From Vicinamibacterales bacterium (GTDB taxonomy: Bacteria > Acidobacteriota > Vicinamibacteria > Vicinamibacterales > UBA8438), in NCBI GenBank assembly GCA_965197395.1, contig CBDANB010000007.1:855594-919593 (forward strand): 64,000 nucleotides of DNA, written 5' to 3'. Of this stretch, positions 1,092-59,571 are shown piece after piece. The position numbers were made by a program, and so were the translations under genes. The notes beneath the pieces were generated by a model. It had not been told where the DNA came from. It saw only the letters and a list, made by a program, of their open reading frames with translations, and searched no databases. The number at the start of each line of letters is the position of its first letter. The first letter of the stretch is position 1.

Positions 1092-2264
1092 ATGACCGAC
1101 AGCTTCGCTTGGCTGATCGATCCGCTGCCGGTCGCCTCGTTCGAGGCGGAGTACTACGAGCGGAAGCTCTGCCACGTCGCCCGGTCCGACCCCGACTACT
1201 TCCGGACGGTCCTGAGGGTCGCTGACCTCGACACCGTTCTCGGCAGCCATGCGGCGACCCACCCCGACATCGGCCTCGTGCGCGGTGACACCGACGTGGC
1301 GGTCTCCGACTACGCGAACGACGCCGGCCGCGTCCAGCCACTCGGCGTCGCGCGGTGCTTCGACGAGGGAGCCACCATCGTCTATCGACAGCTCCATCGC
1401 CGCATCCCGGCCCTGGCTCGTCTCTGTGTGGCCCTCGGGCAGCGATTCGCGTCACGCGTGCAAACGAACGTCTACGTCACACCACCACACGCCCAGGGGT
1501 TCCGGCCGCACTGGGATACGCACGATGTCTTCGTCCTGCAGGTGCGGGGCCGCAAGCACTGGACGATCTACGACGGTGGTCCGACGCTGCCGCTCCGCGG
1601 CCAGCGGTTCGAGCCGGATGGCGGGTCGCCCGGGAGCGTCGTGTCGGAGTTCGAGCTGAGCGCCGGCAGCGTCGTCTATCTGCCACGCGGCGTCATGCAC
1701 GCGGCGCGATCGAGCAATGAGGCCTCGATCCACATCACGCTCGGGCTCACGGCGTTCACCTGGGCCGATTTTCTCATCGAGAGCGTGTCGGCCGTGGCGC
1801 TCGATGACGCGTCGCTTCGAGAGAACCTGCCGACCGCGTTCGCGCGCGATGCGTGCTCCGCGGATGAACGGGCGCGCCTGGTCCGCGACAAGCTCTCCGT
1901 CGTCGCGTCGAATCTCGAGGGCGAGCGGGTTTGGCAACGGCTGCACGACGAGGTGCTCGCGTCGAACATGCCGGTGATGACCGACCTGCTGGCCCGCCGG
2001 CTCGACGCCGAGCCGTTGGTCCCGACATCGCGCATTGGCCATCGTCCCGATCTGGTCGTCGAGAGCCGGCATGATGATGACGGTTGCCGTCTCCTGTTCG
2101 GCGGACAGGAGCTGCGGCTTCCGATGGCGGTCGGACCCGCTATCCAGTTCGTGACCACGACGCCCGAGTTCACGGTGGCCGACCTTCCCGATTGTCTCGA
2201 CGACGCCGGCAAGCTGACCCTGGTGTCGCGACTAGTACGCGAGGGCATCCTGCAGCGGCTCTAG
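1092..2264 (+). CDS. JmjC/cupin-4 2-oxoglutarate Fe(II) oxygenase (ROX/YcfD/NO66-like) with C-terminal winged helix
   Basis: HWDTHDVFVLQVRGRKHW (HxD, K) and distal H in GVMHAA. RBS GAGGGG before ATG1092; the ORF-track extension to 810 overlaps the opposite-strand peptide. Confidence 0.85.
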   Translation: MTDSFAWLIDPLPVASFEAEYYERKLCHVARSDPDYFRTVLRVADLDTVLGSHAATHPDIGLVRGDTDVAVSDYANDAGRVQPLGVARCFDEGATIVYRQLHRRIPALARLCVALGQRFASRVQTNVYVTPPHAQGFRPHWDTHDVFVLQVRGRKHWTIYDGGPTLPLRGQRFEPDGGSPGSVVSEFELSAGSVVYLPRGVMHAARSSNEASIHITLGLTAFTWADFLIESVSAVALDDASLRENLPTAFARDACSADERARLVRDKLSVVASNLEGERVWQRLHDEVLASNMPVMTDLLARRLDAEPLVPTSRIGHRPDLVVESRHDDDGCRLLFGGQELRLPMAVGPAIQFVTTTPEFTVADLPDCLDDAGKLTLVSRLVREGILQRL

Positions 2265-3456
2265 TGTCCTGTGTCAGAAATAAGTGAAATAAGTCATGGG
2301 GTCTCGGCGTATTGCTCTGTAAGGAGACGAGCGATGCGCACAGGACGTCCCAGAACCACCGTGACGCTGACCGCGGACGAACGACGGCAATTGGATTCGC
2401 TGGCCCACCGGTCGCGGAGCGCACCGGACGCTGCGCGGCGCGCCCGGATCATTCTGGCGTGCGCCGAGGGGCGTGAAACGACAGCCGTCGCCCGGCGCCT
2501 GCATGTCTCGGCGACGACGGTGTGCAAGTGGCGATCGCGATTTCTTGAGGAGCGAATGGACGGCCTGTTTGATGAACCACGACCTGGCACGCCGCGCACG
2601 ATCACGGATGACCAGATCGAGCGCATTGTCATTCGCACGTTGGAGACGACCCCGCGCGGCGCGACGCACTGGAGCGTCCGCGACATGGCCAAGGCGAGCG
2701 GCATCAGTCCCTCGTCCGTCAATCGCATCTGGCGCGCCTTCGGCCTGCAGCCGCATCGCACTGAGACGTTCAAGTTGTCGCCAGACCCCTTGCTCATCGA
2801 GAAAGTCCGCGACATCGTCGGCTTGTACATGGATCCGCCCGATCACGCGGTCGTCCTGTGCGTCGACGAAAAGTCCCAGATCCAGGCGCTGGATCGGACC
2901 CAACCGTTGCTGCCGATGCGTCCAGGCCAAGTCGAGCGGCGCACCCACGATTACAAGCGGCATGGCACGACGTCGTTGTTTGCCGCCCTCGATGTCAAAA
3001 CGAGTCGTGTGATTAGTCAGTTCCATCGCCGTCATCGGTCGGTCGAGTTCCGGCGGTTTCTCGACGCGGTGGATGCGGCCGTGCCCAGCGACCTCGACGT
3101 GCATCTCATTCTGGACAACTACGGCACGCACAAGACGCCGATCATCTGGAAGTGGCTCGCCAAGCGTCCGCGCTTTCACGTGCATTTCACGCCGACCTAC
3201 GGGTCGTGGCTCAACCTCGTGGAGCGCTGGTTCGCCGCGCTGACCACCCGCCAACTGCGTCGCGGTGCCCATCGCAGCGTCGCGCAACTCGAAGCCGCGA
3301 TTCAGGAGTTCATCGACGCGCATCATGTCGATCCGAAGCCGTTCGTCTGGACCAAAACAGCCGATGAGATCCTCGCGAGCATCGCGCGATTCGCGCAGCG
3401 CACCGCCGATGCCCAGGCCGCAACGACTTATTTCGCGAACCACTGACACAGGACAC
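2264..3456 (+). mobile_element. IS630-family element, copy 1
   Basis: TIR GTGTCCTGTGTCAG / CTGACACAGGACAC, TA duplicated at 2262-63 and 3457-58 in a CTAG context. Inserted in the JmjC stop codon, which the first G of the IS recreates. Confidence 0.92.
2334..3446 (+). CDS. IS630 transposase
   Basis: HTH N-terminus; [30 protein letters not shown] (DDE). AAGGAG RBS. Confidence 0.95.
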
Positions 3457-3481
3457 TAGCTCAGGGCGGGACGAACGGACG

Positions 3482-4168
3482 ATGAGGCGTCGACGCATCC
3501 GGGTGGCGCTGGTCGGCGTCGGCGTGGGGATGATCGTCGTGCCCACGCTGCTCGTCCTGCCGCTCCGCTGGCTCGCCCCGCCGACCACCGCCTTCATGGT
3601 GGGGCATTGGATGCGCGCCGAGGCGCCACAGTACCAGTGGACGGCGTGGGAGGGCATCGCGCCCGAAGCGGCCCTGGCCGTCATCGCCGCCGAGGATCAG
3701 ACCTTCCTCGACCATGCCGGCTTCGACGTCGACTCCATCCAGGACGCGTGGGCGGAAGCGCGACGTGGCGGCCGCCGCCGCGGCGCCAGCACGATCTCGC
3801 AGCAGGTGGCCAAGAACCTGTTCCTCTGGTCAGGCGGCGGATTCTTCCGGAAAGGGATCGAAGCCTATCTGACCCTGTACATCGAAACGTGGTGGCCGAA
3901 ACAGCGGATCTTGGAGGTGTACCTCAACGTCGCCGAGTTCGGGCACGGCATCTACGGCATTACGGCCGCCAGCGACCACTACTTCGGCGTGACGCCCGCT
4001 GCGATCACCGCGCCGCAGACTGCCCTCCTGGCCGCGGTACTGCCGAGTCCGAAGCGGCTGCGCGTGGACGAGCCGTCTGACTACGTGCGCGAGCGCCAAG
4101 CCTGGATTCGCGGACAGATGGCGCAGTTCGGCGGACCGGCATTTCTCGAGCCGCTGTACACCCGCTAG
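3482..4168 (+). CDS. mtgA: Monofunctional biosynthetic peptidoglycan transglycosylase
   Basis: IAAEDQTFLDHAGFD, RGASTISQQVAKNLFLW, RKGIEA, LEVYLNVAEFG GT51 motifs. Confidence 0.93.
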   Translation: MRRRRIRVALVGVGVGMIVVPTLLVLPLRWLAPPTTAFMVGHWMRAEAPQYQWTAWEGIAPEAALAVIAAEDQTFLDHAGFDVDSIQDAWAEARRGGRRRGASTISQQVAKNLFLWSGGGFFRKGIEAYLTLYIETWWPKQRILEVYLNVAEFGHGIYGITAASDHYFGVTPAAITAPQTALLAAVLPSPKRLRVDEPSDYVRERQAWIRGQMAQFGGPAFLEPLYTR

Positions 4169-4400
4169 TCGAGGCGCGTCCACTCGACGGTTCGGCCGAG
4201 CCAGCGGATTCCGATCCACCCTCGTACCTTCAGCACGCCGTCTTTAAACTCGAGATCGGCCTTGTACTGCTTGCCGTTCTCCGGGTTGTAGATCCGCCCG
4301 TGCTTCCACTTCCCGTCGGTGAACTCGAAGTTGAGGATGAAATCTGTGCCGACCAACGACCGGTCGCGTAGCGTCGGGTCTGGCTTGTGGAGATCTCGCC
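4165..4400 (-). pseudogene. DUF2147-family protein, C-terminal remnant
   Basis: KPDPTLRDRSLVG...GRIYNPENGKQY...LKVRGWIGIRWLGRTVEWTR. The N-terminal half is replaced by unrelated sequence. Confidence 0.7.
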
Positions 4401-4439
4401 CACCCGCCGGTGGCTCGTCGCAGAAGTGGCGGCCGCCTG

Positions 4440-4865
4440 ACCACTGGCTACAAATCCGCGACATCCCGAGGGCGTGGATCGCGGTGTCCCCTGACGGGCG
4501 ATATGCCGCGTACACTGTGGACGAGTCCGGCCAGCGGAGCGTGTATCTCACGGTGTTCCCGAGCGGCGAGGGCCGGTGGAAGGTATCGCTCGACGAAGGG
4601 CAGACCCCGCGCTGGGCCGCTGATGGGGACAGGATCCTTTACACGGCGGGGCGGCAGCTCGTGATCGTCCCAGTGTCAACCGATCCGGAGGTCCGCATTG
4701 GGACGGCGGACGTGCTCCTCGACCTCCCCGAGGAGTTCCCGGGCTTCTACGAGGTGGCTGCGGACGGTGACGAGCTCATCGGCGTTCGCCCAGGTGGGCG
4801 GCGAGGTTGCGTCGTCAATCGTCGTGGTGCAGCACTGGTACCTGGAGTTCGCGAATCAGGACTGA
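4440..4865 (+). pseudogene. C-terminal TolB/PD40 propeller remnant of a kinase-TolB protein, frameshifted near 4790
   Basis: VSPDGRYAAYTVDESGQRSVYL...GRWKVSLDEGQTPRW, then shifted frame IVVVQHWYLEFANQD*. Confidence 0.7.
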
Positions 4866-4990: not shown

Positions 4991-5712
4991 ACGCGTCTTC
5001 TTCCACCCATTCATTGTTGGAGGTGCGCACATGTTGGATCGACGTCGGTTCAATGCGTTGCTAGCGGGCGCAACCGGCTGGGTCGCGCTCGGCCCGATCG
5101 GAACGGCCGCCGCCCAACGACAGTCGCGCGGAGCCGTTTATGCCAGCGTGGACGCCCGGCTCTACAGGATTCGTCATGACGGCAACACTCTGGCTCGAGA
5201 GCCCCGCCCCCTAATCCTTCCCGCTCAGGTGCAAGAGGCGTGGCCGCATCCTTCTGGCAGGTATTTCTACGTCGCAAGCAGCGATGAACGCACGTCGACA
5301 AGTCCCGTGAGGCATCACTATCTGAACGCGTTCCACGTGAACTCGTTGGGAGACCTCAGACCATTCGGAGGGGCCGTCCAACTGGCACATCGGCCGATCT
5401 ACATCACTGTCGACCACCGCGGCGAGTATTTGATATCGGCATACAGTGGGCCGAGTGGGATTTCAGTTCATCGTCTCAATACTGATGGGTCGATCGGCGA
5501 CCAAATCGAACAAGAAGCGACCCTCAACGTCGGATTCTATGCTCACTGCGTATTCCGGAGGATCTTGAACACCGATTCCGGGCGAACGTGAACACGGTTT
5601 CCGGGAAGTTGAACACCGATTCCGGGCATCGTGAACACCGATTCCGGTGATTGTGAACGCTCGTCGGTAGCGAGGTGAGGCACGCTGCGTCTCCCGAAAG
5701 GAGGACGCCGCG

Positions 5713-7272
5713 ATGCCAGTACCGAGGCTATCGATGAGGAAAATCCGCGAGGTTCTACGACTCAAGCACGACCGGGGCCTGAGCCACCGGGCGGTGGCGC
5801 ACGCCTGCGCGATCGGCGTCGGCACGGTCACGCTCTATCTGCAGCGGGCGACCGCCTGCGGGGTGGGCTGGCCAGTGCCGGCCGAGCTGGACGATACGGC
5901 GCTCGAGGCCCGGTTGTTTCCGCGGGCCGCGCCGATGCGGGACCGGATCCGGCCCGATTGCGCGGAGATCCACCGTGAGCTCAAGCGCGTCGGGGTCACG
6001 CTGCAGCTCCTGTGGCAGGAGTATGCCCAGGTCCATCCCGACGGCTACCGCTACAGCCAGTTTTGCGAGATCTACCGGCGCTGGGCTCGGCGCCTCCGGC
6101 CGTCGATGCGTCAGGTGCATCGGGCCGGCGAGAAGACCTTCATCGACTTCTCGGGTAAACGGCCCACGGTCGTTGATCGGCGCACCGGCGAGGAACGGCC
6201 GGTCGAGCTCTTCGTCGCTGTCCTCGGGGCGAGCAGCTACACCTACGCCGAGGCGACCGCCAGCCAGCAGCTGCCGGACTGGGTCGGGGCGCACACCCGC
6301 ATGGTCGCGTACTTCGGCGGCGCGACGGGCCTCTGGGTCCCGGACCAGCTGAAGAGCGCCATCACGCGGTCCTGCCGCTATGAGCCCGGCGTCAATCGCA
6401 CCTACGAGGAGCTCGCCGCGCACTACGGCGCCGTCGTGGTCCCCGCCCGCCCCTACAAGGCCCGCGACAAGGCCAAGGCGGAGGCGGCCGTCCTGGTTGC
6501 CCAGCGGTGGATTCTCGCCCGCCTCCGGCACGAGACGTTCTTCAGCCTGGCCGCGCTGAACGTGGCCATCCGCGCCCTGCTCGACGAGCTCAACGACCGC
6601 CCGTTGCAGAAGCTGGGGGTCAGCCGCCGCACGCTCTATGCGCGGCTTGACCGCCCGGCACTCCAGCCCCTCCCCGCCACTCGCTACGTCGTGGCGCAGT
6701 GGAAGCCTTGCCGCGTCAACATCGATTACCACGTCGAGGTCGCACGGCACCCCTACAGCGTCCCGTACCAACTCATCCACGAGCTGGTCGAGGCGCGGTA
6801 CACCACCACGACCGTCGAGCTGTTCTACAAGGGTCGGCCGCTGACGTCGCATCGTCGGCGCTATGACGGGCAGCCCTCCACCAAGCCGGAGCACATGCCC
6901 AGGGCCCACCGGGCGCATGCCGAGTGGACCCCGTCGCGGCTCATCCGCTGGGCTGAGCAGACCGGCCCCGCCACGGGGCGGCTCGTTGCCGAGATCCTGC
7001 AGCGCCGCCCGCACCCTGAGCAGGGCTATCGCGCCTGTCTGGGGATCATGCGCCTGGGCCGGACGTACGGCGACGCACGGCTCGAGGCCGCCAGCGCGCG
7101 CGCCGTCGCCCTCGGCTCGTACCGCTATCGCACCATCAAGAACATCCTCGCCTCGGCCCAGGACCGCCTGCCCCTGGAGGCCCCGCCGGAGGCGACCCCG
7201 ACGCCCACGCACGCCAACATCCGCGGCGCCGCCTACTATGCGCCGCCCACCCCCGAGGAAGACCGATGCTGA
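5713..7272 (+). CDS. istA: IS21 transposase IstA
   Basis: FIDFSG, VPDQLKSA, RDKAKAEAAV, YSVP motifs. Confidence 0.95.
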   Translation: MPVPRLSMRKIREVLRLKHDRGLSHRAVAHACAIGVGTVTLYLQRATACGVGWPVPAELDDTALEARLFPRAAPMRDRIRPDCAEIHRELKRVGVTLQLLWQEYAQVHPDGYRYSQFCEIYRRWARRLRPSMRQVHRAGEKTFIDFSGKRPTVVDRRTGEERPVELFVAVLGASSYTYAEATASQQLPDWVGAHTRMVAYFGGATGLWVPDQLKSAITRSCRYEPGVNRTYEELAAHYGAVVVPARPYKARDKAKAEAAVLVAQRWILARLRHETFFSLAALNVAIRALLDELNDRPLQKLGVSRRTLYARLDRPALQPLPATRYVVAQWKPCRVNIDYHVEVARHPYSVPYQLIHELVEARYTTTTVELFYKGRPLTSHRRRYDGQPSTKPEHMPRAHRAHAEWTPSRLIRWAEQTGPATGRLVAEILQRRPHPEQGYRACLGIMRLGRTYGDARLEAASARAVALGSYRYRTIKNILASAQDRLPLEAPPEATPTPTHANIRGAAYYAPPTPEEDRC

Positions 7273-8027
7273 TTGAACAGACGCTCGAGAAACTGCACGC
7301 CATGAAGCTCAGCGCCATGGCCGAGGCCGTCCAGCAGCCGCTCCACAGCGATGACGCCGCCACGCTCAGCTTTGAGGACCGCCTCGGGCTGCTGGTCGAC
7401 GCCGAGTGGACCGCCCGCGAGCAACGGAAGCTCCAGCGACGGCTGCACACGGCCAAGCTCCGCTATGCCACCGCCGCGCTTGAGGCGGTCGACTTCACCC
7501 ACCCCCGCCGACTCCACCGCCAGCAGGTCCTCACGCTGGGCAGCTGCGCCTGGATCGCCGAGCGCCACAACCTACTGATCACCGGGCCGACCGGCATCGG
7601 CAAGAGCTTCCTCGCCTGTGCCTTCATCGAGCGGGCGTGTCGGCGCGGCTTCACGGCGCGCTACGTCCGCATGCCGCGCGTGCTGCACGAGGTGGCGGTC
7701 GGCCGGGGGGATGGGTCCTACACGCGGCTGCTGGCGCGCCTCGCCAAGCTCGATCTGCTCGCGATCGACGACTGGCTGCTCGCGCCGCTGCGCGACGCCG
7801 AGCGGCGCGACCTCACCGAGATCATCGAAGACCGGGCCGAACGGGCCTCCACCCTCATCGCCAGCCAGCTCCCCGTGACCGACTGGCATGCCGGGATCGG
7901 GGACCCGAACCAAGCCGACGCGATCTGCGACCGGCTGCTCCACGATGCGCACCGCCTCGAGCTGAAGGGTTCCTCGATGCGGCGCACGAACGCGTCCCCG
8001 ACGCCACCGCCGCAGGCCACGCCGTGA
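7266..8027 (+). CDS. istB: IS21 helper ATPase IstB
   Basis: Walker A GPTGIGKS, Walker B LLAIDDW, ADAICDRLLH; overlaps the istA end. Confidence 0.95.
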   Translation: MLIEQTLEKLHAMKLSAMAEAVQQPLHSDDAATLSFEDRLGLLVDAEWTAREQRKLQRRLHTAKLRYATAALEAVDFTHPRRLHRQQVLTLGSCAWIAERHNLLITGPTGIGKSFLACAFIERACRRGFTARYVRMPRVLHEVAVGRGDGSYTRLLARLAKLDLLAIDDWLLAPLRDAERRDLTEIIEDRAERASTLIASQLPVTDWHAGIGDPNQADAICDRLLHDAHRLELKGSSMRRTNASPTPPPQATP

Positions 8028-8885
8028 TCAGCACCCGGCCGACCGGCGGCTGCCACGGGGGGTAGACAGGTAGGGCGAGGTCGAGCAATCGCCTCTCAGG
8101 GCATCCTCGTCGGTCGTTTCGAGGCCGAGGCCTATGGATCCTGCCAGCGGTATGGAAAACGCGTTCGGGCGCCCAGGAGGACAGCGGCGCCAGGGCACGC
8201 GTTTCCCACACCGCTTTGGACGGCGCACACGGCGCGCCGCCCACAGGCTCCACAGGGTCATCATCTGCATGCACAAACACGACAACGCGAGTAGGATATC
8301 CAAGACCCGTGACGACCACGATGGAAGGAGACTGACCGACACACGTCGCTTCGCTCCGACGAGCGTTCACCTTCGTCGGAATCGGCGTTCACGATCCTCG
8401 GAATCCGTGTTCAACTTCAGCGGAATACGCACTCACGGCGTTCGCGTCATGCCCACGAATCGTGCGGTCCTGCTGATCACGCGGGGCAACGAACCGGTCC
8501 CCGGCATGAGAACGGAGGATCCAGGAGCTCTGTATATATATGGCTTCGAGAACGGCCAGCTGACCAACAAGCAGTCGGTGGCGCCCAACCAGGGCTTGGC
8601 ATACCGCGTTCGGCACGCCGACTTTCATCCCACTGGAAGATGGGTCTACGTAGATTTGGAAGCCCAAAACCTGCTTCACACCTACAGCATTCGAGCTGAC
8701 GACACGCTTTCGGAAGAGCCCGTGTTTGTCAGCACCACGTTAGCCTCGCCATCAACATCGAGAGGAGGGCAGACAACATCGTCGATTCGCATGCATCCAA
8801 CGAATGGCAGGATCTTGTACGTCGCGAACCGGGGCCGGGGTACAGAAGTGTTTCAGGGCGAGAGAGTGGCGAATGGTACCGAAAA

Positions 8886-10308
8886 GAGATATTGTCAATA
8901 GTTGTGGATCGGCGCTCGGCGTGATCAGGCGGCCTCCTTCCGATTCCCCGCGGTATTGCGTTCCTTCTGCACCCCGTCGACGAAGACCACGCCCGCACGA
9001 ACGAGCGGCAAGAGGTGTGCGCCGTTGAGGCGCCGCCAGCGATGCTGCGCCATGTCCAGCAGCTTGTAAGCCATCAGCAGCCCCTTCGTGCGGGAGCCCG
9101 CACCTTTGGTGACCCGTTGCCGTAGCCGGACGGTCGCGAAGGGCGACTCGATGACGTTGGTCGTCCGCAGGTGGATCCAGTGCTCAGCGGGGAACGCGAA
9201 GAAGGTGAGCAGGGACTCCCGGTCAGCCGCCAGGCACGCCGCCGCCTTCGGATACTTGGCCCCGTACTCGGTCACGAAGCCCTTGAGGTGTTCTTCGGCC
9301 TGCTCTCGCGTGTCGGCCGCCAGGATGTCGTGGAGCACGCGCTTCGCCTTCGGCTGGAGGCGCTTCGGCAACTTGTCGAGCACGTTGCCCAGCTTGTGGA
9401 ACCAGTCGCGTTGCTCGGCCGTGTCCGGCCAGACGTCCCGGACGGCCGCCCAGAAGCCCAGGGCGCCGTCGCCGACCGCGACCACGGGGGCCTGCAGGCC
9501 GCGGCGCTGGAGATCACGCAGCACCTCCGCCCAACTGTCCGTGCTCTCACGGTAGCCGTCCTCGAGCGCGACGAGCTCCTTGGTCCCGTCGGGCCGGACC
9601 CCGATCATCACCAGCGTGCAGAGCCGGTCGTCCTCAAGCCGGATGTTGAAGTGGATGCCATCCACCCAGACATACACGTAGTCGCAGGCGGCCAGGTCCC
9701 GCTGGCGGAATTGCCGATACTCGGCCTCCCACACCGCGGTCAAGCGCGCGATGTTAGTCGCACTCAAGCCGGCCGCGTCGTCCCCGAGCAGCACGGGCAG
9801 CGCCTCGCGGAAGTCCCCCGTCGACAACCCGCGCAGATACAGAATCGGCAACACCTCGGCGACCTTGGGAGAGCGCCGCATGTACGGCGGGAGAATGCGA
9901 CTGGTGAACCGCTCACGCTGACCCGCCCCATCCACCCGCTTGTCGTTCACGCGGGGCGCTTGCACCTCGAGCGTCCCTGCGCCGCACGTCACTTTGCGCG
10001 CCTTGCCCCGGCCGTTGCGGACCACCAGCCGGCGACCTGCCTCGTCGTGCGCGGCCTGGTGCGTCTCCACATACTGCGCGACCTCGGCTGCCAGGGCCGT
10101 CATCAGCATCCGCCGAGCCCCTTCCCGGGCCAGCTCATCGAGGGTCCGCTCCTCCGTCCCCTCTTCCGTTTCCGCGGCCGTGTCGAGTACCTTCAGCATG
10201 GGTGGCGTCTCCTTTCACCGGCCTACCAGCCGGCATTTTCGCGTTTGTCACGCGAAAGGATACGCCGCCTTCTTCACGCTGCCGATCCACAACTTCCGGT
10301 TATATCTC
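8886..10308 (-). mobile_element. IS256-family element
   Basis: 28-bp imperfect TIR GAGATATTGTCAATAGTTGTGGATCGGC / GCCGATCCACAACTTCCGGTTATATCTC; 9-bp TSD TACCGAAAA (8877-85, 10309-17). Confidence 0.93.
8925..10199 (-). CDS. IS256 (mutator-type) transposase
   Basis: LYLRGLSTGDF, WVDGIHF, VGDGALGFW, TTNVIESPF. Confidence 0.95.
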   Translation of the reverse strand: MLKVLDTAAETEEGTEERTLDELAREGARRMLMTALAAEVAQYVETHQAAHDEAGRRLVVRNGRGKARKVTCGAGTLEVQAPRVNDKRVDGAGQRERFTSRILPPYMRRSPKVAEVLPILYLRGLSTGDFREALPVLLGDDAAGLSATNIARLTAVWEAEYRQFRQRDLAACDYVYVWVDGIHFNIRLEDDRLCTLVMIGVRPDGTKELVALEDGYRESTDSWAEVLRDLQRRGLQAPVVAVGDGALGFWAAVRDVWPDTAEQRDWFHKLGNVLDKLPKRLQPKAKRVLHDILAADTREQAEEHLKGFVTEYGAKYPKAAACLAADRESLLTFFAFPAEHWIHLRTTNVIESPFATVRLRQRVTKGAGSRTKGLLMAYKLLDMAQHRWRRLNGAHLLPLVRAGVVFVDGVQKERNTAGNRKEAA

Positions 10309-10701
10309 TACCGAAAACACGATCGCGGTGTTCTCGATTGATCCGCAAACCGGTGAGCCGACACTAATCCAAACGATCGACACCCACAGCATTGCTGTCA
10401 GGACGATGGCACTGCCCTCTGACGGACGAACGTTGATCGCTGCAAACACGTCACCTGGAAGAATCCGCACCCAAGGTCGTTTGGAAACAATTCCTGCCGC
10501 TCTGACTCTGTACGATATCGAACACGACGGTAGGCTGTCGTTCAAGTCCAAGCTTGATGTCGACACGCGAGGAGAAACGATGTTCTGGTGCGGGGTTGTC
10601 CAGTATTGAGGCGCGAACCGCCAGCCAGGCTGATTCACGTCCACTACGGGACTAGCCAGGACGCCGGATTTAGACACCGTCAACGCAACGAGGACCAAAC
10701 C

Positions 10702-11493
10702 ATGAACCGATCAGCCGCTATCTTATCGATCCTCGCATTCCTGGCGACCCCATGGGCCGCGGGATGCACCGCCGATGGCCAGAGCCAGCCCGACGCCACT
10801 GAGGTCGCCACGTCGACGCAGCAGCGGGCGGGGAGTCCGTTCGCAGCTGCTCCCTTGCTAGGGGAGCTGACAAGCACCGTAGTGTATGGCGAGATCTGGG
10901 AACGGTCGCAACTCTCCAAACGTGACCGCAGCTTGATCACGATCGCGGCTCTTCAGGCGTTGTACCGCGACCAGTTGCGGGGACATCTCAACCGCGGCCT
11001 CGAGAACGGTCTGACCCAAGAAGAGATCCAAGAAGTGATCGTGCACGTGTCGTTCTATACAGGGTGGCCGACGGGGGTCAACGCCTCCAGAATGGCGGGA
11101 GAGGTGTTTCGGGAACGGGGCTTGCCGGCCAGCCCGCCTGCTTCGCCGTGGGTCGAATCCGGCGATTCGCAGGAGTACACGACAGGCGCCTATGCGGCGA
11201 TCCCGAGGCTTGGGGAGTTGAGAAACAGCCTTCTCTACGGTGATATTTGGGAGCGGACGCAACTCTCCAAACGAGACCGGAGCATGGTTACGGTGGCCGC
11301 CTTACAAGCGCTGTACGCGACGAATCAGTTGCGGGGCCATATCAGACGAGCGCTCGATGAGAACGGCGTCACCCCCGAAGAGCTCTCGGAGATCATCTTG
11401 CACCTCACGTTCTATGCCGGCTGGCCCGCCGCGGTCAACGCGGGTGGGTTGGCGGCTGAGGCGTTCGAAGAACGGGGCATCGCGCTCGGCTAG
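10702..11493 (+). CDS. Carboxymuconolactone-decarboxylase family protein, two CMD domains, predicted lipoprotein
   Basis: Duplicated YGEIWERSQLSKRDRSLITIAAL / YGDIWERTQLSKRDRSMVTVAAL and FYxGWP; signal ending AAGC. Confidence 0.8.
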   Translation: MNRSAAILSILAFLATPWAAGCTADGQSQPDATEVATSTQQRAGSPFAAAPLLGELTSTVVYGEIWERSQLSKRDRSLITIAALQALYRDQLRGHLNRGLENGLTQEEIQEVIVHVSFYTGWPTGVNASRMAGEVFRERGLPASPPASPWVESGDSQEYTTGAYAAIPRLGELRNSLLYGDIWERTQLSKRDRSMVTVAALQALYATNQLRGHIRRALDENGVTPEELSEIILHLTFYAGWPAAVNAGGLAAEAFEERGIALG

Positions 11494-11709
11494 GAGCCCT
11501 GGCAATGGGTCATTCCTCGCCCGAGGAGGTCTTGCTCCTCTTACCCGAAGCGAGAAGGCGGGGCGTTGGGAACATTCTCATCACCCACGTGTTGTCGCAG
11601 AACCCGACGCGGGCTCAGGTGCAGCGCATAGCGGATCAAGGCGCGATCATGGAGCTCGTTCATCCTGGGGGGCGCCGCTTCACAATCGAGGATTGTTAGC
11701 TATTTATTT

Positions 11710-12076
11710 GGGTCTATCCGGGTTTCCCAACGCCATTTTGGGGCCTTTCGGGGTTTTTCGTGGGTGATTTGATTGGAAAGGCCCTGTGGGAGCTCGTGGA
11801 AAACGCACAGCGTTTTCCAAGGCACGGTGGGCGCGTTCTGTGCGTCCACGGCGCCGTCAGCTTCCACAGGGCCCGTCCGTGCGCGACAAGATGGCTCCCA
11901 GGGAGGGGGCCCATGCGTGATGTCGAACTGGACCGCTGCGTCCTCGGACTGCAGTCGACCGGCGAACAACTATGTTCGCGTCAACACCGTCGACCTGTAC
12001 ACGCCGAACGCTCGACTTACCCCGGAAAGACTGGGATATCAGGTGCTTACGCTATTTGGGAAACTCGGATATAGCC
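11710..12076. mobile_element. 367-bp non-autonomous element (MITE) inserted in the IS1595 terminal repeat
   Basis: 21-bp TIR GGGTCTATCCGGGTTTCCCAA / TTGGGAAACTCGGATATAGCC (18/21); 8-bp TSD ATTTATTT (11702-09, 12077-84); no credible ORF. Confidence 0.8.
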
Positions 12077-12119
12077 ATTTATTTAACTCAGGTGACCCCA
12101 AGATGTTGTGGTCGCCAGA

Positions 12120-13046
12120 TCACGGCATTCGGGCGTATCTGACCAACGACTCGTAGGGCGCCGGGTCGATGGCGACGGCGTGCTGGACGAGACGATAGAA
12201 CAGCTTGCCGCGGCTGCGGGAGCGGCGCCGGTTGAATCGAAAGGTGAACTCGTCGAGGTAGTACTCCAGATGCTCGTGCGTGACCGCGCCCTGATGGGTC
12301 CCCAGCAGCCACCGCTTGAGGAGAGACACCACCCGATGCACATGGGGCATGAGCTGCGACGGGGACTGGGCGTGGCCCTGGAGCCAGGTCACCTCGTGCC
12401 GGTAGCCATGGCGGTCCAGCGGGTCGTAGCCGGACCAGCCATCCGTGTGCACCAGGCTGCCCGGCGCGATGGCCTCCTGCACGAACGCCGTCAGGCTCGG
12501 CCCGGACGCGTCGACGAGGCGCCGCAACCGAATGCGGCCCAGCCGGCCACGCGCGACTTCGACGGCAACTGCCACCAGCGCTTTGGTTTCGGTCTGCCGG
12601 CCCCGCCGGCCCGGGTGCACGCCGCCGACGTAGGTTTCGTCCACTTCGACCCGACCCGTGAGGCAATCGCGGCCCGGGCGCACCATGGCCCGACGCAGCT
12701 TGTGGAGCCAGGTCCACGCCGTCTTGTAGCTGCGCAGGCCCAACGTCCGCTGCAGCCCCAAGGCACTCACCCCAGTCTTCTGGTTCGTGACCCACCACAT
12801 CGCCCGAAACCACGTGGGCAGCGGGGTCCGCGTGTCCTGGAAGATGGTGCCCGCCGTCACCGAGGTCTGGTGGGCGCACGCTGCGCACTGCCACTAGCGC
12901 CGCCGCACGGGCCACGCCTTCGTCTCGCCACAGCGCGGGCACCGAAATCCCTCTGGCCACCGGAGCTGCTCCAGATACGCGCGACACGCCTCCTCGGTCG
13001 CGAATCGCCGCTCGAACTCGGCGAGATCTCGCGGATAATCCTCCAC
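12120..13046 (-). pseudogene. IS1595 (ISXo2-like) transposase with in-frame TAG at 12894-96
   Basis: MEDYPRDL...RWPEGFRCPRCG...RRR*WQCAACAHQTSVTAGTIF (zinc ribbon), VEVDETYVG, VHTDGW, YLDEFTFRFNRR. Confidence 0.9.
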
Positions 13047-13060
13047 CGGGCCGTACGCTA

Positions 13061-14246
13061 GTGTCCTGTAACAGAAATAAGTAAACGGTTTATGGTGCCT
13101 CGACGTATTCCTCGCAGGAGGTGCACGTGAGAGGTCCTGCCCCGGTGACAGTGACCGTCAGTGACGACGAACGGCAACGGCTCGACTCGTGGGCCCACCG
13201 GTCGCGCAGTGCCCCGCAGGTGGCGCGGCGCGCCCGCATCATTCTGGCGTGTGCCGCCGGCCGCTCGACGACGAGCATCGCCAAACGGTTCCACGTCTCG
13301 CGGACCACGGTGTGCAAGTGGCGCACACGCTTCGTGCGCGATCGCCTGGAGGGACTGATCGACGAACCGCGTCCGGGCACGCCTCGGCGGATTACCGATG
13401 CGCAGGTGGAGCAGGTGGTGATTGCAACCCTGGAAACCACGCCTCGCGGGGCGACGCAGTGGAGCACGCGCGATATGGCGAAGGCGACGGGCCTGAGTCA
13501 CATGACCATCCAGCGCATTTGGCAGGCGTTTGGATTGCAGCCGCATCGCAGCGAGACCTTCAAGCTGTCGCCAGACCCGCAGCTGGTCGAGAAGGTGCGC
13601 GATATCGTCGGGCTGTACGTGAATCCGCCGGACCATGCCCTTGTGCTCTGCGTGGACGAGAAATCGCAGATTCAGGCGTTGGATCGGACGGCCCCCCTGC
13701 TGCCGATGCAACCCGGGCAGGCCGAGCGGCGCACGCATGATTATCGGCGGCACGGAACGACCTCGCTGTTTGCGGCCCTCGACGTCAAGACGGGCGAGGT
13801 GCTCGCCGAAATGCACCAGCGGCATCGCTCGATCGAGTTCCGCAGGTTCCTCGATGCGATCGACGCGCACGTCCCCGCCGACCTGGACGTGCACCTGATC
13901 GTCGACAACTACGGGACGCACAAAACCGCGATCATTCAGCGCTGGTTGGCCAAGCGCCCGCGGGTCCACCTGCACTTCACACCGACCTATGGGTCCTGGA
14001 TGAACCTGGTCGAACGTTGGTTCGCGGCGCTGACGACGAAGCAGCTTCGCCGCGGCGCCCACCGGAGCGTCGCGGCCCTCAAACGCGCGATCCAAGAGTT
14101 CATCGAGGTGACCAATGAGCAACCGACGCCGTTCGTCTGGACCAAGAGTGCCGACGACATCCTCGCGAGCATCGCCCGGTTTGCTCGGCGAACGCTGGCT
14201 GCACACCCAGCATGACAACTGTTCGCGAACCACTGTTACGGGACAC
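13061..14246 (+). mobile_element. IS630-family element, copy 2 (diverged from copy 1)
   Basis: GTGTCCTGTAACAG / CTGTTACGGGACAC ends; TA duplicated at 13059-60 and 14247-48 in CTAG. Confidence 0.92.
13127..14215 (+). CDS. IS630 transposase
   Basis: [30 protein letters not shown]; AGGAGG RBS before GTG13127. Confidence 0.95.
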
Positions 14247-14573
14247 TAGATGTTGGGGGCGCCTGAGTCAAGTAAATAGCTAACTCGAGGATTACGTGGA
14301 GGTCATCAGGGCCATCGGCGCGCAGCACTTCCTGGTTTCATCAGACCTGGGCCAGTACTTGAACCCGCTGCAAACTGACGGCCTGAAGGCGTTCATCACC
14401 GCGTTGCGCGAGCAAGGAATCAACGAAGGCGACATCGACATGATGGCGCGGCGAAACCCAGCGCACCTTCTCGGGCTCGATCCTTAATGCCTCTCCAGCC
14501 CGGCACCACCCTCGGCCCGTACGAGATCCAAACCCCGCTTGGCGCGGGCGGTATGGACATCTGAGTTGTTCAG

Positions 14574-15824
14574 TCAAGCAAAATCTTTGACGAGCGCGGA
14601 CCCACGTCGGCGTAATGCGTCGAGGTAGATCGCTTCGTCGTACGGCCGACGGTCCTGCCAGCACCGGAAGAGAATCCGCATCCACTTGAAGGCGAGCGAT
14701 CGCAGGGCGGCGTGGTGCGAGTTGCCGCGGCCGCGCTGCTGGTCGTAGTACCGACGGGCCCAGGTCGAGAAGCGAATCGATTGGTCCGCATACTCGTGAA
14801 ACGTCTGCTTGAGGAATTTCGGGCACGCCAGGCGGTGATGCACCCAGCAGCTCTTTCCGCTGCGCTCGGTGACGGGGGCGATGCCGGCGTGGGTCTGCAG
14901 CTCGGTCGCGGCGGCCCAGCGGGTGCGGTCGGTGCCGAAGGCCGCCGTGAGGCGCGGGGCGCAGACCGGCCCGGCGCCGGGGAAACTCGCAAAGAGCGCC
15001 TGGTCCGGGTGCGTGGCGAAGACCGCGGCGATCTGCGTATCGAAGGCGTCAATGGCCTCGAGGAGGGGGCGGAGTTGGGCGGCGTAGCTCTGGACCGCGA
15101 GCGCGAGGGTGTCGACGATCGCCGGGTCGGTGGTCAGTGGCCGGGCGGTGGCGACCTGCTCAAGCCGACGGGCGATCACCGCGGCCTGGCGACAGTTGTG
15201 CTGCTGATAGAACCGGCGCAGGGTGGCGGGGCGCGCCCGTTGGACGGCGGCGAGCGTCGGCCACTTCTGGAGAAAGTCGCAGCCTTGCCGCGAGTCGAGC
15301 GCGCCGACCCAGTCAAGCGCCTGGGGGAAGTACTGCTTGAGCAGGCTGGTAAGCCGGTTGGTCAGGGCGACCCGGTGATTGACGAGCTTCCGGCGGTGTT
15401 CGCAGAGCAGTTGCAACCGGCGGGCCTCCACGGTGTCGGGCATCCACGCGCGGAGCTGGGCGCGATGGGAGCGCAGCAGATCCAACAGGAGCGCGGCGTC
15501 GGTCGGATCGTCTTTGGCCCCGCTGGGGTGGAGGGCCTCCCGGTAGCGCGCTAACGCCTTGGGGTTGATCGGATAGAGGACCACGAACTCATACTGCAGC
15601 AGGGCGTGCACGACCGCGCCCTTGCGTTGTTCGATGGCAATCCCGACCGGGCGGCCCCCGAACCGCCGCCGCAGCTGCGCCACCCAGGCGTGCAGCGTGT
15701 CGGGCCGCTGTTCGAGCTCAATGTGTTCCAGCCGGCCGCCGGCGGCCGGCTGGATCGCGATCGCGTGCCGCTGATCGCCCCAGTCCAATCCGATGTAGGC
15801 CACCACGTCGTCGTCAGTCCGCAT
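14574..15824 (-). CDS. IS110 DEDD recombinase/transposase
   Basis: YIGLDWG (D), IAIE (E), AKDDPTDA (DD), VTERSGKS catalytic-Ser wedge; GGGAGG RBS before ATG15824. Confidence 0.95.
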   Translation of the reverse strand: MRTDDDVVAYIGLDWGDQRHAIAIQPAAGGRLEHIELEQRPDTLHAWVAQLRRRFGGRPVGIAIEQRKGAVVHALLQYEFVVLYPINPKALARYREALHPSGAKDDPTDAALLLDLLRSHRAQLRAWMPDTVEARRLQLLCEHRRKLVNHRVALTNRLTSLLKQYFPQALDWVGALDSRQGCDFLQKWPTLAAVQRARPATLRRFYQQHNCRQAAVIARRLEQVATARPLTTDPAIVDTLALAVQSYAAQLRPLLEAIDAFDTQIAAVFATHPDQALFASFPGAGPVCAPRLTAAFGTDRTRWAAATELQTHAGIAPVTERSGKSCWVHHRLACPKFLKQTFHEYADQSIRFSTWARRYYDQQRGRGNSHHAALRSLAFKWMRILFRCWQDRRPYDEAIYLDALRRRGSALVKDFA

Positions 15825-15859
15825 GCGCCTCCCTTCGGGGAACACGCACGTGGCCTTGG

Positions 15860-16050
15860 TCCTGCGCAAGCCCTATAGTAGAGTCCTGAGTGGTCACACT
15901 CGGACGACATCTGAGTATGCGATGTCGGACCAAAGCGCCGTCTCCGCTCGAACGTCCATGCCAAACCGTTGCTGCGGTGGGCGAGGTTGATTCGTAGCGG
16001 AGGCGGTGCGCGTTTCCTTTCCGTGTTCATCCAGCCCAGTTAACGTACGC
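15860..16050 (-). ncRNA. Predicted IS110 bridge RNA (target-binding loop about 16000-15944, donor-binding loop about 15921-15865); ends approximate
   Basis: Guides TGGGCGAGGT (15978-87) and CCATGCC (15956-62) match the target halves. GACATCTGAGT (15906-16) and CCTATAGTAG (15872-81) match the donor halves. Each pair is separated by an internal hairpin. Confidence 0.8.
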
Positions 16051-16554
16051 GCGCCGCTATGGAACCTGCCGCACCTGTGGAAATCCGCCAAGAGCGCGGA
16101 TTCCCACAAGGTGCTTGGAACGCTTCGCGTCCCACAGGTCCCACAGCGTTCATCATCATCCTCTCTCGTATCCGGTGAGTTCCAGATTCCAAGACAGCGG
16201 CCCTACTATAGGGCGAGGTCTACACGAGAAAGAACTGAGACGAACGGCATGACTGACCCAAAAGTCCTAAGGTTCCTCACACAAATGTGTGCACGATTCA
16301 GCCCCCAGCAGGTCAGCCACGCCGTGGAAAGAGGCTGCGGATGTGTTCGTGCCCGCGAATCAGCGGTGAAGTCGTCTATCGCTCAGTCGACGGCCGCCTG
16401 CGCGGGCCCCGCTTTTGGTGGGGGGCCTGCTCGACGGCAGCCGGTCCCACCTCAAGGTGCTGAGGCGCTGGCATTTACAGGGCGACGAACCATGAACACT
16501 CGTGGAACGCGGCCTGGACTTTCGCCGACGCGCGAACGAGCGGACCCCGGCACC

Positions 16555-17210
16555 AAGAGTAAGTATCCCCCGGCAAAGCCGGGGGCTTTAGTTGTGAGCC
16601 GCTCAAAGCGGCTGACGTGACCGCTGCGCGGTCACTTGAGCCACCTGACGGTGGCGGCTCTAGTCCAACGGCAACTGATCCAGCCGCCGATCCTCTCGCT
16701 CCTGCTGCTGGATATAGTCCCGGATGATCCGTTCATCACGGCCCACCGTCGAGACAAAATACCCGCGCGCCCAGAAGTGCTGCCCCACGAAGTTCCGGGA
16801 CCGCCCCGCAAACTCCCGAGCGATGTGGATCGCGCTCTTCCCCTTGAGATACCCGATCACCTGCGCCACCGAGTACTTCGGGGGGATCGACACCAACATG
16901 TGGACGTGGTCGGGCAGCAGATGCCCCTCCTCCACCTGGCTCTCGCGGTGCCGCGCCAGCTGCCGCAGCACCTCGCCCAGCTGCTGCCGGACGCCTCCAT
17001 ACATCGCTTTCTTCCGGTACTTCGGAATGAACACTACGTGATACTGGCAGTGCCATTTCGTATGATTGAGACTTCGGTACGTCGTCATGAGGACTCCTTC
17101 TCGTGATGCTTGTGCGGCTCACGGGAAGGAGTTTCCTCACGCGACTCCCGGATACGTCAAACGCTGCTGGCCGCCCCGGCAAAGCCGGGGGGTCTCCCAC
17201 GGCAACTAGG
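16555..17210 (-). mobile_element. IS200-type element (tnpA only); boundaries approximate
   Basis: Subterminal hairpins CCCCCGGCAAAGCCGGGGG (16567-85) and CCCCGGCAAAGCCGGGG (17174-90) flank tnpA. Confidence 0.85.
16660..17088 (-). CDS. tnpA: IS200/IS605 Y1 HUH transposase
   Basis: YHVVFIPKYRKK, DHVHML (HUH), FWARGYFVSTVG, IRDYIQQQ. Confidence 0.95.
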   Translation of the reverse strand: MTTYRSLNHTKWHCQYHVVFIPKYRKKAMYGGVRQQLGEVLRQLARHRESQVEEGHLLPDHVHMLVSIPPKYSVAQVIGYLKGKSAIHIAREFAGRSRNFVGQHFWARGYFVSTVGRDERIIRDYIQQQEREDRRLDQLPLD

Positions 17211-19373: not shown

Positions 19374-19392
19374 GTGGATCCTCCTCTGTAAC

Positions 19393-19504
19393 TAGACGGG
19401 GCTTCGCCCCGAACCCCACGCGGACGCTTCGTGGGGACCCCGAGAGCCCCACTCCGCGACCGCGAGGCGCGCTGTGCGCGCCTTGGTCGTGTGCCGACAG
19501 TCTA
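19393..19504. repeat. About 112-bp palindromic repeat, family A
   Basis: TAGACGGGGCTTCGCCCCGAACCCC...GGCGCGCTGTGCGCGCC...GTCTA; homologous to 21225-21282, 59012-59570 and 62298-62400. Confidence 0.8.
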
Positions 19505-19753
19505 CAAGAAGTGCGACATCTGGTTCGTGCCGCACCGGATACTCATTTTGGACCCGAACGCCGGCTCCCGCAGCAGTGTCTGCACGCTCTCGGCGTCCAG
19601 GGCCTTGATTGCCGCGATCAGGGGGAGGTCGCGCGCGCTGGCCGACAGGCCGGCGACGGAGAGCAGCAGCGCGAGCGCCGCGCCGCACAGGCGCCGAACA
19701 TACAGATGCACGATCGCGAATTGTACCAAAAGCGGATGGTGCAGGATCCGCAA
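19502..19753 (-). pseudogene. Signal peptide plus first repeat of an ankyrin protein, truncated
   Basis: ALALLLSVAGLSASARDLPLIAAIKALDAESVQTLL resembles the 52792 ankyrin N-terminus (PLIDAVKALD). Confidence 0.55.
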
Positions 19754-21116: not shown

Positions 21117-21224
21117 ATCGGCGGTCGCCACCCGTTGTGCTTGACACGACCGCCGTGCCGCAGAAGGGCCTCTTCGGGTAACTTCGGCCGTTGCGGCCGA
21201 AACGAGAATCTCGTACTTGTTATC

Positions 21225-21282
21225 GACCGTCGGCAAACGGCCAAGGCGCGCACGGCGCGCCTCGCGGGCGCGGAGCGGGGCT
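21225..21282. repeat. Half copy of repeat family A
   Basis: GACCGTCGGCAAACGGCCAAGGCGCGCACGGCGCGCCTCGCGGGCGCGGAGCGGGGCT. Confidence 0.7.
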
Positions 21283-21779: not shown

Positions 21780-21801
21780 CTGCTGGCTGCGGTCGCCGTT
21801 C

Positions 21802-21850
21802 GTAGGGCAAGGCTTCAGCCTGACCACGCAGGCCTGAAGGCCTGCGCTAC
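21802..21850. repeat. GTAG-type REP doublet (family B)
   Basis: GTAG-hairpin...hairpin-CTAC: GTAGGGCAAGGCTTCAGCCTG...GCAGGCCTGAAGGCCTGCGCTAC. Confidence 0.75.
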
Positions 21851-21884
21851 GACGCCGGGAGGGTCGCGTTCGCTCGTCCGGCGG

Positions 21885-37568: not shown

Positions 37569-37699
37569 CGGGCGAGACCCAACTGGGGCGCCGATCGATT
37601 CTGACCGCCCTCGCGTGCGCGCTAGCCGTCGTCGGGAGCGCGTGTGCGCCATCTGACGCTGGCGATGCGGCGAGCGCTGCGGAGCTGACGGACTTGTAG
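37565..37699 (+). pseudogene. Lipoprotein signal remnant ending inside a REP
   Basis: MTGETQLGRRSILTALACALAVVGSAC...; ATGA-coupled to the upstream gene; stop is the TAG of GTAG at 37696. Confidence 0.5.
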
Positions 37700-37744
37700 C
37701 GCAGGCCTTTAGGCCTGCGAAGCACGGCTGAAGCCGTGCTCTAC
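37696..37744. repeat. GTAG-type REP doublet (family B)
   Basis: GTAGCGCAGGCCTTTAGGCCTGCG-AAGCACGGCTGAAGCCGTGCTCTAC. Confidence 0.75.
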
Positions 37745-37783
37745 GACGGATAACAGGTGCGAGGCGCAAAACTGAGCCGGAGA

Positions 37784-56527: not shown

Positions 56528-56569
56528 GCGCGCGTGCCGCTGACCCGGCGTGGGCTGACGTTGTAAGGA

Positions 56570-56618
56570 GTAGGGCACGGCTTCAGCCGTGCCTCGCAGG
56601 CCTGAATGCCTGCGCTAC
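56570..56618. repeat. GTAG-type REP doublet (family B)
   Basis: GTAGGGCACGGCTTCAGCCGTGCC-TCGCAGGCCTGAATGCCTGCGCTAC. Confidence 0.75.
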
Positions 56619-56666
56619 GGTAGCGACTCAGGTGAGCTTCACGGTGAGGGTGATGAAGGAGACGTG

Positions 56667-57779: not shown

Positions 57780-57833
57780 CACGGTCTGGTCGCAGCGGGA
57801 CCTCGATGCCCGCAACTCACGTGTGTTGAACCT

Positions 57834-57882
57834 GTAGCGCAGGCCTTCAGGCCTGCCCAGCGAGGCTAAAGCCTCGCGCTAC
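57834..57882. repeat. GTAG-type REP doublet inside a larger inverted repeat
   Basis: GTAG...CTAC doublet flanked by GCAACTCACGTGTG (about 57812) and CACACGTGAGTTGC (about 57933). Confidence 0.75.
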
Positions 57883-57950
57883 GACACGCAACACACGTGA
57901 GCTCTGGGGTTTCAGGGCCCACGCGGCGTCGACACACGTGAGTTGCGAAC

Positions 57951-58994: not shown

Positions 58995-59011
58995 GGCTGG
59001 CTGTCGACCGC

Positions 59012-59570: not shown

Positions 59571-59571
59571 G

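Follow-up and report, generated by a model that had tools for sequence, protein, structure and literature searches.

Introduction

Insertion sequences (ISs) are thought to carry little besides a transposase and their end sites, and copy-out-paste-in, a major pathway of their transposition, is poorly understood at its replication step. Here we describe a structured module that lies in non-coding DNA just inside the ends of several IS families and that was met in three copies within a window of 64,000 nt (the whole stretch of DNA that was analysed, C8:855594-919593) from the 6.07-Mb genome (66.5% G+C) of a Vicinamibacterales bacterium. A sequence-only reading of the window had pointed to one skeleton shared by an IS21-family element, a transposable element of the miniature inverted-repeat type (MITE) and the left end of an IS110-family element, and had offered a hitch-hiking mini-element, a regulatory RNA or a structure bound by a host factor as possible explanations. 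With high confidence this skeleton can be described as a strand-specific three-way-junction module, an inward-reading and exchangeable accessory of circle-forming ISs of Acidobacteriota.

Several described systems resemble the module in part. REP, BIME and REPIN sequences with their RAYT proteins (PMC3733652) are plentiful palindromic repeats whose stem foot holds a conserved tetranucleotide and whose wobble pairs fall on one strand, and they may be nested or paired; the module, in contrast, carries the tag GTGG/CCAC and not GTAG or CGTC, has three arms, resides inside ISs and keeps a fixed polarity. Furthermore, no Y1 (HUH) gene is linked to the module in the window genome: the 44 IS200-type copies use CCCCGGCAAAGCCGGGG hairpins and lie at a median distance of 38.7 kb from any module, three other Y1 genes are more than 40 kb away from any module, and a GTAG-type REP family (family D18) is present separately. 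Integron attC sites are likewise folded single-stranded DNA, the long ones having branched tips, and one family of them had at first been taken for an RNA motif (PMC5737381). The module differs from them in lacking RYYYAAC/GTTRRRY ends (it reads CTGTGG ... CCACAG) and cassette arrays, and in being sited at IS ends. The Solibacter-1 motif (Weinberg 2010, PMC2864571 supplement) is a three-stem junction present in multiple copies in an acidobacterium, which its authors suspected to be a repetitive element (PMC2864571). It is known from one species, shows modest covariation and is not in Rfam, and its published sequences, compared by eye and not by model, lack the words CUGUGGG, CCAAG and GUGGGCGCG. 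The bridge RNA of IS110 elements (PMC11208160) shares with the module of the window IS110 the non-coding left end and the strand; unlike the bridge RNA, the module is almost fully paired, lacks guide-bearing internal loops, occurs also in DDE-type ISs and is absent from IS110 homologues of 81-84% protein identity that keep the conserved RNA region downstream of it.

Two further comparisons can be drawn. The single-strand origins ssoA and ssoU and the complementary-strand origins or primosome sites of G4, phiX174 and M13 are, like the module, multi-hairpin structures of about 100 nt with conservation mainly in helices, and are strand- and orientation-specific on a strand displaced by a fork, a location which for the module is proposed. 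They differ in being borne by plasmids and phages and not by ISs; no sequence likeness is claimed, and priming by the module is putative. The frameshift-stimulating three-way junction of IS911 also lies in an IS and follows a purine-rich, Shine-Dalgarno-like stretch, but it sits inside the orfA-orfB overlap on the sense strand, whereas the module lies outside genes and is mostly antisense. Hammerhead and other ribozyme cores, the kink-turn and Chi-like words offered no matching conserved unpaired bases.

The module is an uncatalogued, phylum-wide family. Rfam 15 gave no match in the window at gathering scores and none overlapping any copy at E values up to 5 over positions 5000-17000, so that the comparison suggested along with the sequence-only reading did not reduce the module to a catalogued family. 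Full-text literature searches, using the conserved words and terms for IS-borne priming sites or structured motifs, returned nothing relevant.

Results and Discussion

One fold in three elements

The three copies of the window are as follows.

8128..8259, minus strand: module copy 1, 172 nt inside the IS21 right end, downstream of istB and antisense to it
11780..11873, plus strand: module copy 2, 70 nt inward from the MITE left end
16053..16150, minus strand: module copy 3, about 60 nt inside the IS110 left end; the presumed bridge RNA and the transposase follow downstream on the same strand

A covariance model (R1, alignment A3) was built only from seven MITE/ISL3-type copies located elsewhere in the genome. 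R1 matches the IS21 copy (35.2 bits, E 1e-4) and the IS110 copy (35.0 bits, E 1.1e-4) over their full length, as it does the MITE copy (110.3 bits), and found nothing else comparable over the 64-kb window. Since a model made from MITE and ISL3 sequences alone recognises the IS21 and IS110 copies from end to end, the likeness of the three is not due to chance, and the common skeleton claimed from the letters alone is thereby borne out. An alignment of the three copies by MAFFT was poor; model-fitted alignments were used.

All three copies fold far better than shuffled sequence (z -7 to -10). As RNA, the minus and plus strands reach -88.3 and -70.6 kcal/mol in copy 1, -61.0 and -66.5 in copy 2, and -69.3 and -50.5 in copy 3, a difference of 5 to 19 kcal/mol between strands; the ranking of the strands is unchanged with DNA parameters.

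The module is a discrete unit of about 95 nt (up to about 150 nt), one strand of which folds as an almost perfect three-way junction of an outer stem and two hairpins. Each of the three arms opens with GUGG(G/A), which pairs with UCCAC and includes a conserved G.U or A-U; this fifth position is a purine-U pair throughout and never G-C. The outer stem reads CTGTGG(G/A)n(G/C)CT ... AG(G/C)nTCCAYAG. Hairpin 1, GTGGrAA...TTyCCAA, is followed by the junction word (A)G, and hairpin 2, GTGGG...TCCAY on a variable stem of 5 to 6 bp, by GGC or GTC, which makes CCAAG and GGC the overall junction words. The conserved bases lie almost all within helices, and there are almost no conserved unpaired bases and almost no GNRA or UNCG loops. 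The hairpin tips are of two kinds, TTCTGT-like loops or, in some arms, C-GNA-G triloops. Some copies hold an additional GTGGrAA...TTyCCAC hairpin nested inside a loop, the second hairpin of the window IS21 copy is extended by 32 nt, and a one-hairpin version exists at C3:75076-75128. A copy from a genome of 31% G+C keeps the architecture, the first hairpin and the junction words on A-T-rich stems.

Covariation and strand selection

Alignment A4 (39 distinct sequences) has 94.4% of its cells paired and 30 of 38 pairs changed on both sides, with a covariation score of 0.441 against 0.149 for shuffled and at most 0.083 for slid alignments. Alignment A7, taken from other genomes (85 distinct sequences), gave practically the same picture: 93.9% of cells paired, 34 of 38 pairs changed on both sides, and a score of 0.439 against 0.145 shuffled and at most 0.091 slid. 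Both alignments were fitted to the model and lean towards structure for that reason; the margins are large and most stems are ungapped. Strong covariation on two alignments, together with the paired fraction, bears out the view that the stems vary while staying complementary around conserved junction words, as in a multi-helix single-strand structure.

The two strands are not equivalent. Over the 85 sequences of A7 the CTGTGGG strand carries 320 G.U pairs (G.U pairs occupy 10% of positions) against 30 A.C pairs, 20 of the latter at the doubtful outermost pair, and the excess of G.U is seen at at least eight variable positions in addition to the three conserved ones. From this wobble excess and the better folding of the same strand it follows that the structurally selected strand is CTGTGGG...TCCAYAG, the complement of the orientation CTRTGGA...CCACAG given in the sequence-only reading, and the call of an antisense motif is reversed with it: in the IS110 element the module lies on the strand of the transposase and the presumed bridge RNA.

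These results bear directly on the idea that six GTGG(A/G) boxes in duplex DNA bind a host or element protein near the end, the hairpins being a by-product of symmetry. The conserved bases are indeed the GTGG/CCAC words at the foot of each arm. However, the variable parts of all stems covary, in the outer stem the 4 to 6 outermost pairs change together and keep their complementarity among the window copies, the spacing of the boxes ranges from 15 to over 60 nt, and in duplex DNA an uneven share of wobble pairs between the strands would mean nothing, so that we regard this explanation as very improbable.

Carriers and polarity

In the window genome about 117 module loci were found by BLAST and at least 101 by the model. 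Two of the window carriers are delimited by comparison of their copies.

5547..8431, plus strand: IS21-family element carrying copy 1, with istA (5713-7272), istB (7266-8027) and multiple terminal repeats, assigned by Pfam and NCBIfam
11710..12076, plus strand: MITE, about 367 bp long, with inverted repeats at its termini and a duplication of 8 bp, ATTTATTT; its limits are BLAST copy boundaries

The ends of the IS21 element are defined by eight near-identical genome copies, all eight of which hold the module between istB and the right terminal repeats. The MITE has about 100 copies in the genome, in two subtypes. An ISL3 element of 1.58 kb (C1:1409166-1410747, five copies) carries a module of 89% identity that is sense to the transposase, upstream of it and 130 nt in from the left end. 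With respect to the sequence just before the module, which the MITE and an ISL3 variant have in common, both are probably related by descent and the MITE is probably ISL3-derived. The description of the carriers as three unrelated elements is fair for the IS21 element, the IS110 element and the MITE taken by themselves, with the addition that the MITE looks derived from a module-carrying element of ISL3 type. A derivation of the MITE from an IS6 element was dismissed as an artefact of a stop-to-stop open reading frame (ORF) overlapping a 98% identical MITE copy in another genome (G008).

A survey of carrier families brought up more than the three elements first seen. For 136 module matches the nearest transposase was determined by tblastn and its family named by NCBIfam and Pfam. 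A recognisable transposase lies within 1.2 kb in 93 of the 136, and in 81 of these 93 the module points at the gene, i.e. the transposase is downstream. The placements were:

after istB, antisense: 26 cases
upstream of istA, sense: 13 cases
after the ISNCY_2 (IS481-like) gene: 10 cases
after IS256: 10 cases
after IS110, antisense: 9 cases
upstream of IS110, sense: 3 cases
IS3: 3 cases
ISL3: 2 cases
one IS110 lineage of a single metagenome-assembled genome (MAG), module after the gene on the same strand: 7 cases

The carriers are thus IS21 as the main family, IS256, IS3/IS481-like elements, ISNCY_2, IS110 and ISL3, plus the ISL3-type MITE. Where no reference transposase was recognised, the downstream ORFs add four of rve type, two of IS256 and one of IS110, the rest being ordinary genes; none was of IS4, IS5, IS630, IS66 or IS200 type. 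The window genome likewise shows no module in its 62 IS630 copies, which belong to several lineages, in its IS4/5 copies (at least 17) and in its 44 IS200 copies.

The folding strand runs 5' to 3' from the element end inward: right-end modules are antisense to the gene, left-end modules are sense, and all three window copies read inward. IS3, IS21, IS256, IS110/IS1111 and ISL3 form circular intermediates, presumably by copy-out-paste-in (10.1101/2023.06.07.543989). Inward polarity and the restriction to circle-forming ISs speak for a process beginning at the element end, which would be replication with strand displacement or inward transcription. A link to the direction of chromosome replication was ruled out by the orientation of the module relative to local GC skew, which is unbiased (19/18/14/12).

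The polarity was also set against an intrinsic terminator for outward transcription, which would end the transposase mRNA before the right end and so avoid occlusion of the end. In many elements the module starts 2 to 27 nt after the transposase stop, and a pyrimidine tract comes after it on the outward strand. This tract is interrupted, with about 50% T at alternate positions and no T run; a terminator scan finds nothing at the three window copies, and the 3' flank of the selected strand contains 11-31% T. Moreover, selection acts on the other strand and an outward RNA would have conserved A.C mismatches at three or more places, 23 copies as well as the MITEs have the module at left ends, where outward means antisense, and a three-armed, sequence-conserved junction is unnecessary for termination. 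Consequently, we hold a terminator to be quite unlikely.

On the 5' side the flank is not random. Purines dominate the ten bases ahead of the module, which follow a rhythm of three (consensus about GAnGAnGATGA on the selected strand), GATG occurring in 38 of 112 independent 5' flanks and in none of a control stretch, and positions -35 to -17 are T-rich. On the 3' side no pattern was seen. The leaders of the window copies, read from sequence and composition, are:

8260..8272, minus strand: purine-rich GATGAT leader 5' of copy 1, from position-specific composition
11766..11779, plus strand: purine-rich leader GATTTGATTGGAAA 5' of copy 2
16151..16168, minus strand: purine-rich leader GAGAGAGGATGATGATG 5' of copy 3

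Three interpretations of this flank were discarded. The upstream pyrimidine and purine tracts do not form a fourth hairpin (folding z-score of about 0, no general feature). A small ORF through the module was rejected, as ATG is enriched upstream (47 of 112) but its frame to CTGTGG varies and the indels of the hairpins are not multiples of three. Concerning sigma-54 or sigma-70 promoters, a TGG-N10-TGC match in one MITE hairpin is not conserved, upstream TTGAC words stand at no fixed distance, and scans of the window copies found neither a sigma-70-like promoter nor a U-tract terminator.

The leader belongs to the evidence for a role as RNA, in which transcripts entering from outside or starting at the element tip would fold into the junction and serve as a stabiliser, as a processing site (e.g. 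for RNase III) or as a protein platform that shields from outside transcription or translation. Such a role, which we consider possible yet well short of probable, would fit the frequent G.U pairs with one conserved per arm, the very stable RNA folds and the GATG/ATGA stretch directly 5' (Shine-Dalgarno-like, with start and stop codons), as well as the fact that in IS110, ISL3 and one IS21 lineage the module falls within the 5' leader of the transposase or bridge RNA. It has to be weighed against the 58 of 81 inward copies that lie antisense to the transposase gene at its 3' end, a place with no evident promoter, against the absence of a U-tract after the module on the selected strand, and against the near lack of conserved unpaired bases and of GNRA or UNCG loops already mentioned; the frames of the upstream ATG differ among copies, and consequently no peptide is encoded.

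The IS110 element

In the IS110 element the module can be compared with close relatives that lack it.

14551..16212, minus strand: IS110-family element with its transposase at 14574-15869, ends approximate, assigned by Pfam and NCBIfam; homology to genome G001 extends over 14541-16208
15870..16014, minus strand: presumed bridge RNA, a conserved non-coding stretch between module and transposase, kept in all four IS110 homologues

The stretch at 15870-16014 contains words that appear to match the flanking target. Recombinase homologues of 81-87% identity were found in three related genomes. The element of G001 shares the whole left end including the module (27.5 bits), whereas those of G013 and G055 keep a stretch of about 160 nt beside the transposase, presumably the bridge RNA, and have about 3 nt in place of the 57 nt and the module of the window element. 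A flanking word common to all four elements, GTAGACCTC-CCCTATAG, places the left end near position 16212. As the elements of G013 and G055 do without it, the module is an addition to this IS110 lineage, located between the element tip and the bridge RNA and not a part of the guide.

The IS110 transposase is single-copy in the window genome; only the 92-nt module recurs, solo, at C5:442810-442901. This solo copy is 95.7% identical, has an incomplete outer stem and shows one compensatory change from A-T to C-G.

In one Vicinamibacterales MAG (L137) an IS110-family element is followed by two convergent modules 230 nt apart (6501-6596, plus strand, and 6824-6951, minus strand), the first of which represents the only lineage found pointing outward.

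Spread and exchange

Within the same family and order, 51 of 121 genomes give matches to R1 (1 to 14 are listed for each), and these represent 27 of 51 genera. A second model, R2, built from 40 diverse module copies, matches 25 of 151 genomes drawn evenly across the phylum, a tally that includes one unpublished genome (G166) on which no further claim rests. In an exact-pattern scan of 185,579 species genomes, matches came mostly from Vicinamibacterales and other Acidobacteriota MAGs; further contigs were binned as Gemmatimonadota, Phycisphaerae, Alphaproteobacteria, Bifidobacteriaceae and Rhizobacter, most of them matching the model at full length; several of these non-Acidobacteriota matches are on short contigs, and the binning may be wrong. 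A match in Streptomyces was discarded as a chance partial one. A plasmid collection gave no BLAST match to the module, and a viral contig (L172, IMGVR_UViG_3300037137_003697) holds the second-hairpin pattern of the module at 1072-1105.

A complete copy of the window MITE, 98% identical, is present in a genome of a different genus (L009, G008:C1:336410-339503, positions 1429-1796), which suggests recent horizontal spread. Among 67 modules, the nearest non-identical neighbour belongs to the same carrier family in 43, compared with about 25% expected, and to another IS family in 24. Clustering by carrier is thus above chance yet not strict, pointing to a mainly vertical history with some transfers. 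Copies borne by IS256 and by one IS21 lineage have about 45 nt in common upstream of the module, so that the exchanged unit can exceed the junction itself. ISL3 homologues with 58-61% identity, present in four genomes, are without the module, and their left ends are too diverged to place exact insertion boundaries.

The same data have to be considered for a selfish hitch-hiker, i.e. a hairpin unit that would copy itself into single-stranded DNA (ssDNA) without benefit to the carrier, the displaced strand of transposition being its preferred target. Targeting of this kind would yield the polarity and the range of families; presence and absence between close IS110 homologues and between ISL3 homologues, the 24 of 67 modules closest to one in another IS family, the nested GTGGrAA...TTyCCAC units with a one-hairpin version, and the incomplete solo copy are all in keeping with it. 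As a transposable unit, however, the module shows no target duplication and no empty site with exact module boundaries: the bases outside the CTGTGG/CCACAG words are complementary and covary (e.g. GACC...GGTC) and are not direct repeats, and the IS110 insert brings 57 extra bases. In addition, a linked HUH/Y1 gene is missing, at least seven diverged IS21 lineages hold the module in one constant position, 2 to 27 nt past the stop of istB, and module subtypes track carrier lineages above chance. On balance we think a hitch-hiker unlikely.

Possible function in copy-out replication

A fold on one strand that reads inward from the ends of circle-forming ISs could, as we tentatively suggest, be a fork-like priming site of folded ssDNA on the strand displaced during copy-out replication. 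This is our best guess, though short of even odds, and a role as RNA is almost equally likely. According to published work, the flanking 3'-OH left by the first strand transfer primes synthesis of the circle (10.1101/2023.06.07.543989). The inward-reading strand of the module would correspond to the non-transferred strand. A fork primed from the flanking 3'-OH would enter the element and displace this strand as ssDNA from the end onward; the folded, fork-like junction could then escape single-strand-binding protein (SSB) and recruit the host primosome or primase, whereupon the displaced strand would be primed and converted to duplex, giving a double-stranded circle. The function is proposed by analogy with rolling-circle plasmids and their single-strand origins, and with G4 and phiX174 and their complementary-strand origins. 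What leads to this proposal is the combination of a covarying structure, selection on one strand, inward polarity, a range of families that form circles, and the lack of a promoter or terminator at the window copies; conservation confined to helices, as in DNA hairpins recognised by proteins, and the C-GNA-G triloops of some arms point the same way. The requirement of single-strand origins for one strand and one orientation relative to the fork agrees with the wobble counts (320:30) and the polarity (81 of 93), this being a necessary condition only.

Several observations weigh against a priming site. The frequency of G.U pairs and the conserved ones among them are no less typical of RNA. The module is missing from many members of the carrier families, in the same genome from an IS3 (8 copies), a second IS21 (5 copies) and an IS256 (3 copies). 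The polarity rule is broken in 10 of 93 cases, and the module of one IS110 lineage points outward. The recombinases of IS110 do not belong to the DDE enzymes, and we know of no need for copy-out replication in the formation of IS110 circles. ISNCY_2 is only similar to IS481 and absent from the published list of circle formers, and the counts behind the restriction to certain families are uncorrected for family abundance in other genomes. To our knowledge a priming site has been described in no IS.

The broader statement, that ISs moving through copied-out circles carry their own fork-shaped single-strand replication origin, which draws on host priming and is traded among at least six IS families, appears somewhat more doubtful still. 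If priming by the module were true, it would be the first cis-acting replication element described in bacterial ISs and a direct handle on the host side of copy-out-paste-in transposition, and the replication step itself would become testable. A strongly conserved structured module with fixed polarity across families with unrelated enzymes implies a common dependence on a host process. If it acts as RNA, it would constitute a new and widespread class of non-coding RNA of mobile DNA in a dominant soil phylum. Either way, the covariance model is a marker for annotating IS ends and MITEs in Acidobacteriota.

Nested and neighbouring elements

In the window genome a 1373-bp IS3-family element (8 copies) is inserted in an ISL3-borne module between CTGT and GG of the outer stem (L007, G000:C7:1078000-1081600, junction C7:1079807). 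The solo module at C5:442810-442901 is cut off at the same spot, which may be a hot spot of recombination or insertion. At another locus (L001, G000:C5:433000-446000) a module-free IS21-family element of 2425 bp (5 copies) is inserted at 2167-4591 in a copy of the window IS21, about 25 nt beyond the module at a point equivalent to window positions 8281-8288.

Mobile elements are densely nested in this region of the window. An element of the IS256 family (3 copies) occupies 8886-10308, about 450 bp beyond the right end of the IS21 element, and two IS630-family copies lie at 2853-3290 and 13643-14080. A separate 260-bp MITE with at least 75 near-identical genome copies adjoins the IS110 element at 16271-16530, followed at 16557-17209 by an IS200-type element of 652 bp (Y1 transposase of 152 aa), one of the 44 copies, with its hairpins at both ends. 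GTAG...CTAC double-hairpin repeats at 21798-21853, 37692-37747, 56566-56621 and 57830-57885 look like a classical REP/REPIN family distinct from the module. Furthermore, a tandem array of five copies of a 135-bp unit extends over 58877-59679, and partial copies of this unit are dispersed in both orientations at 19389-19519, 21208-21282 and 62337-62392.

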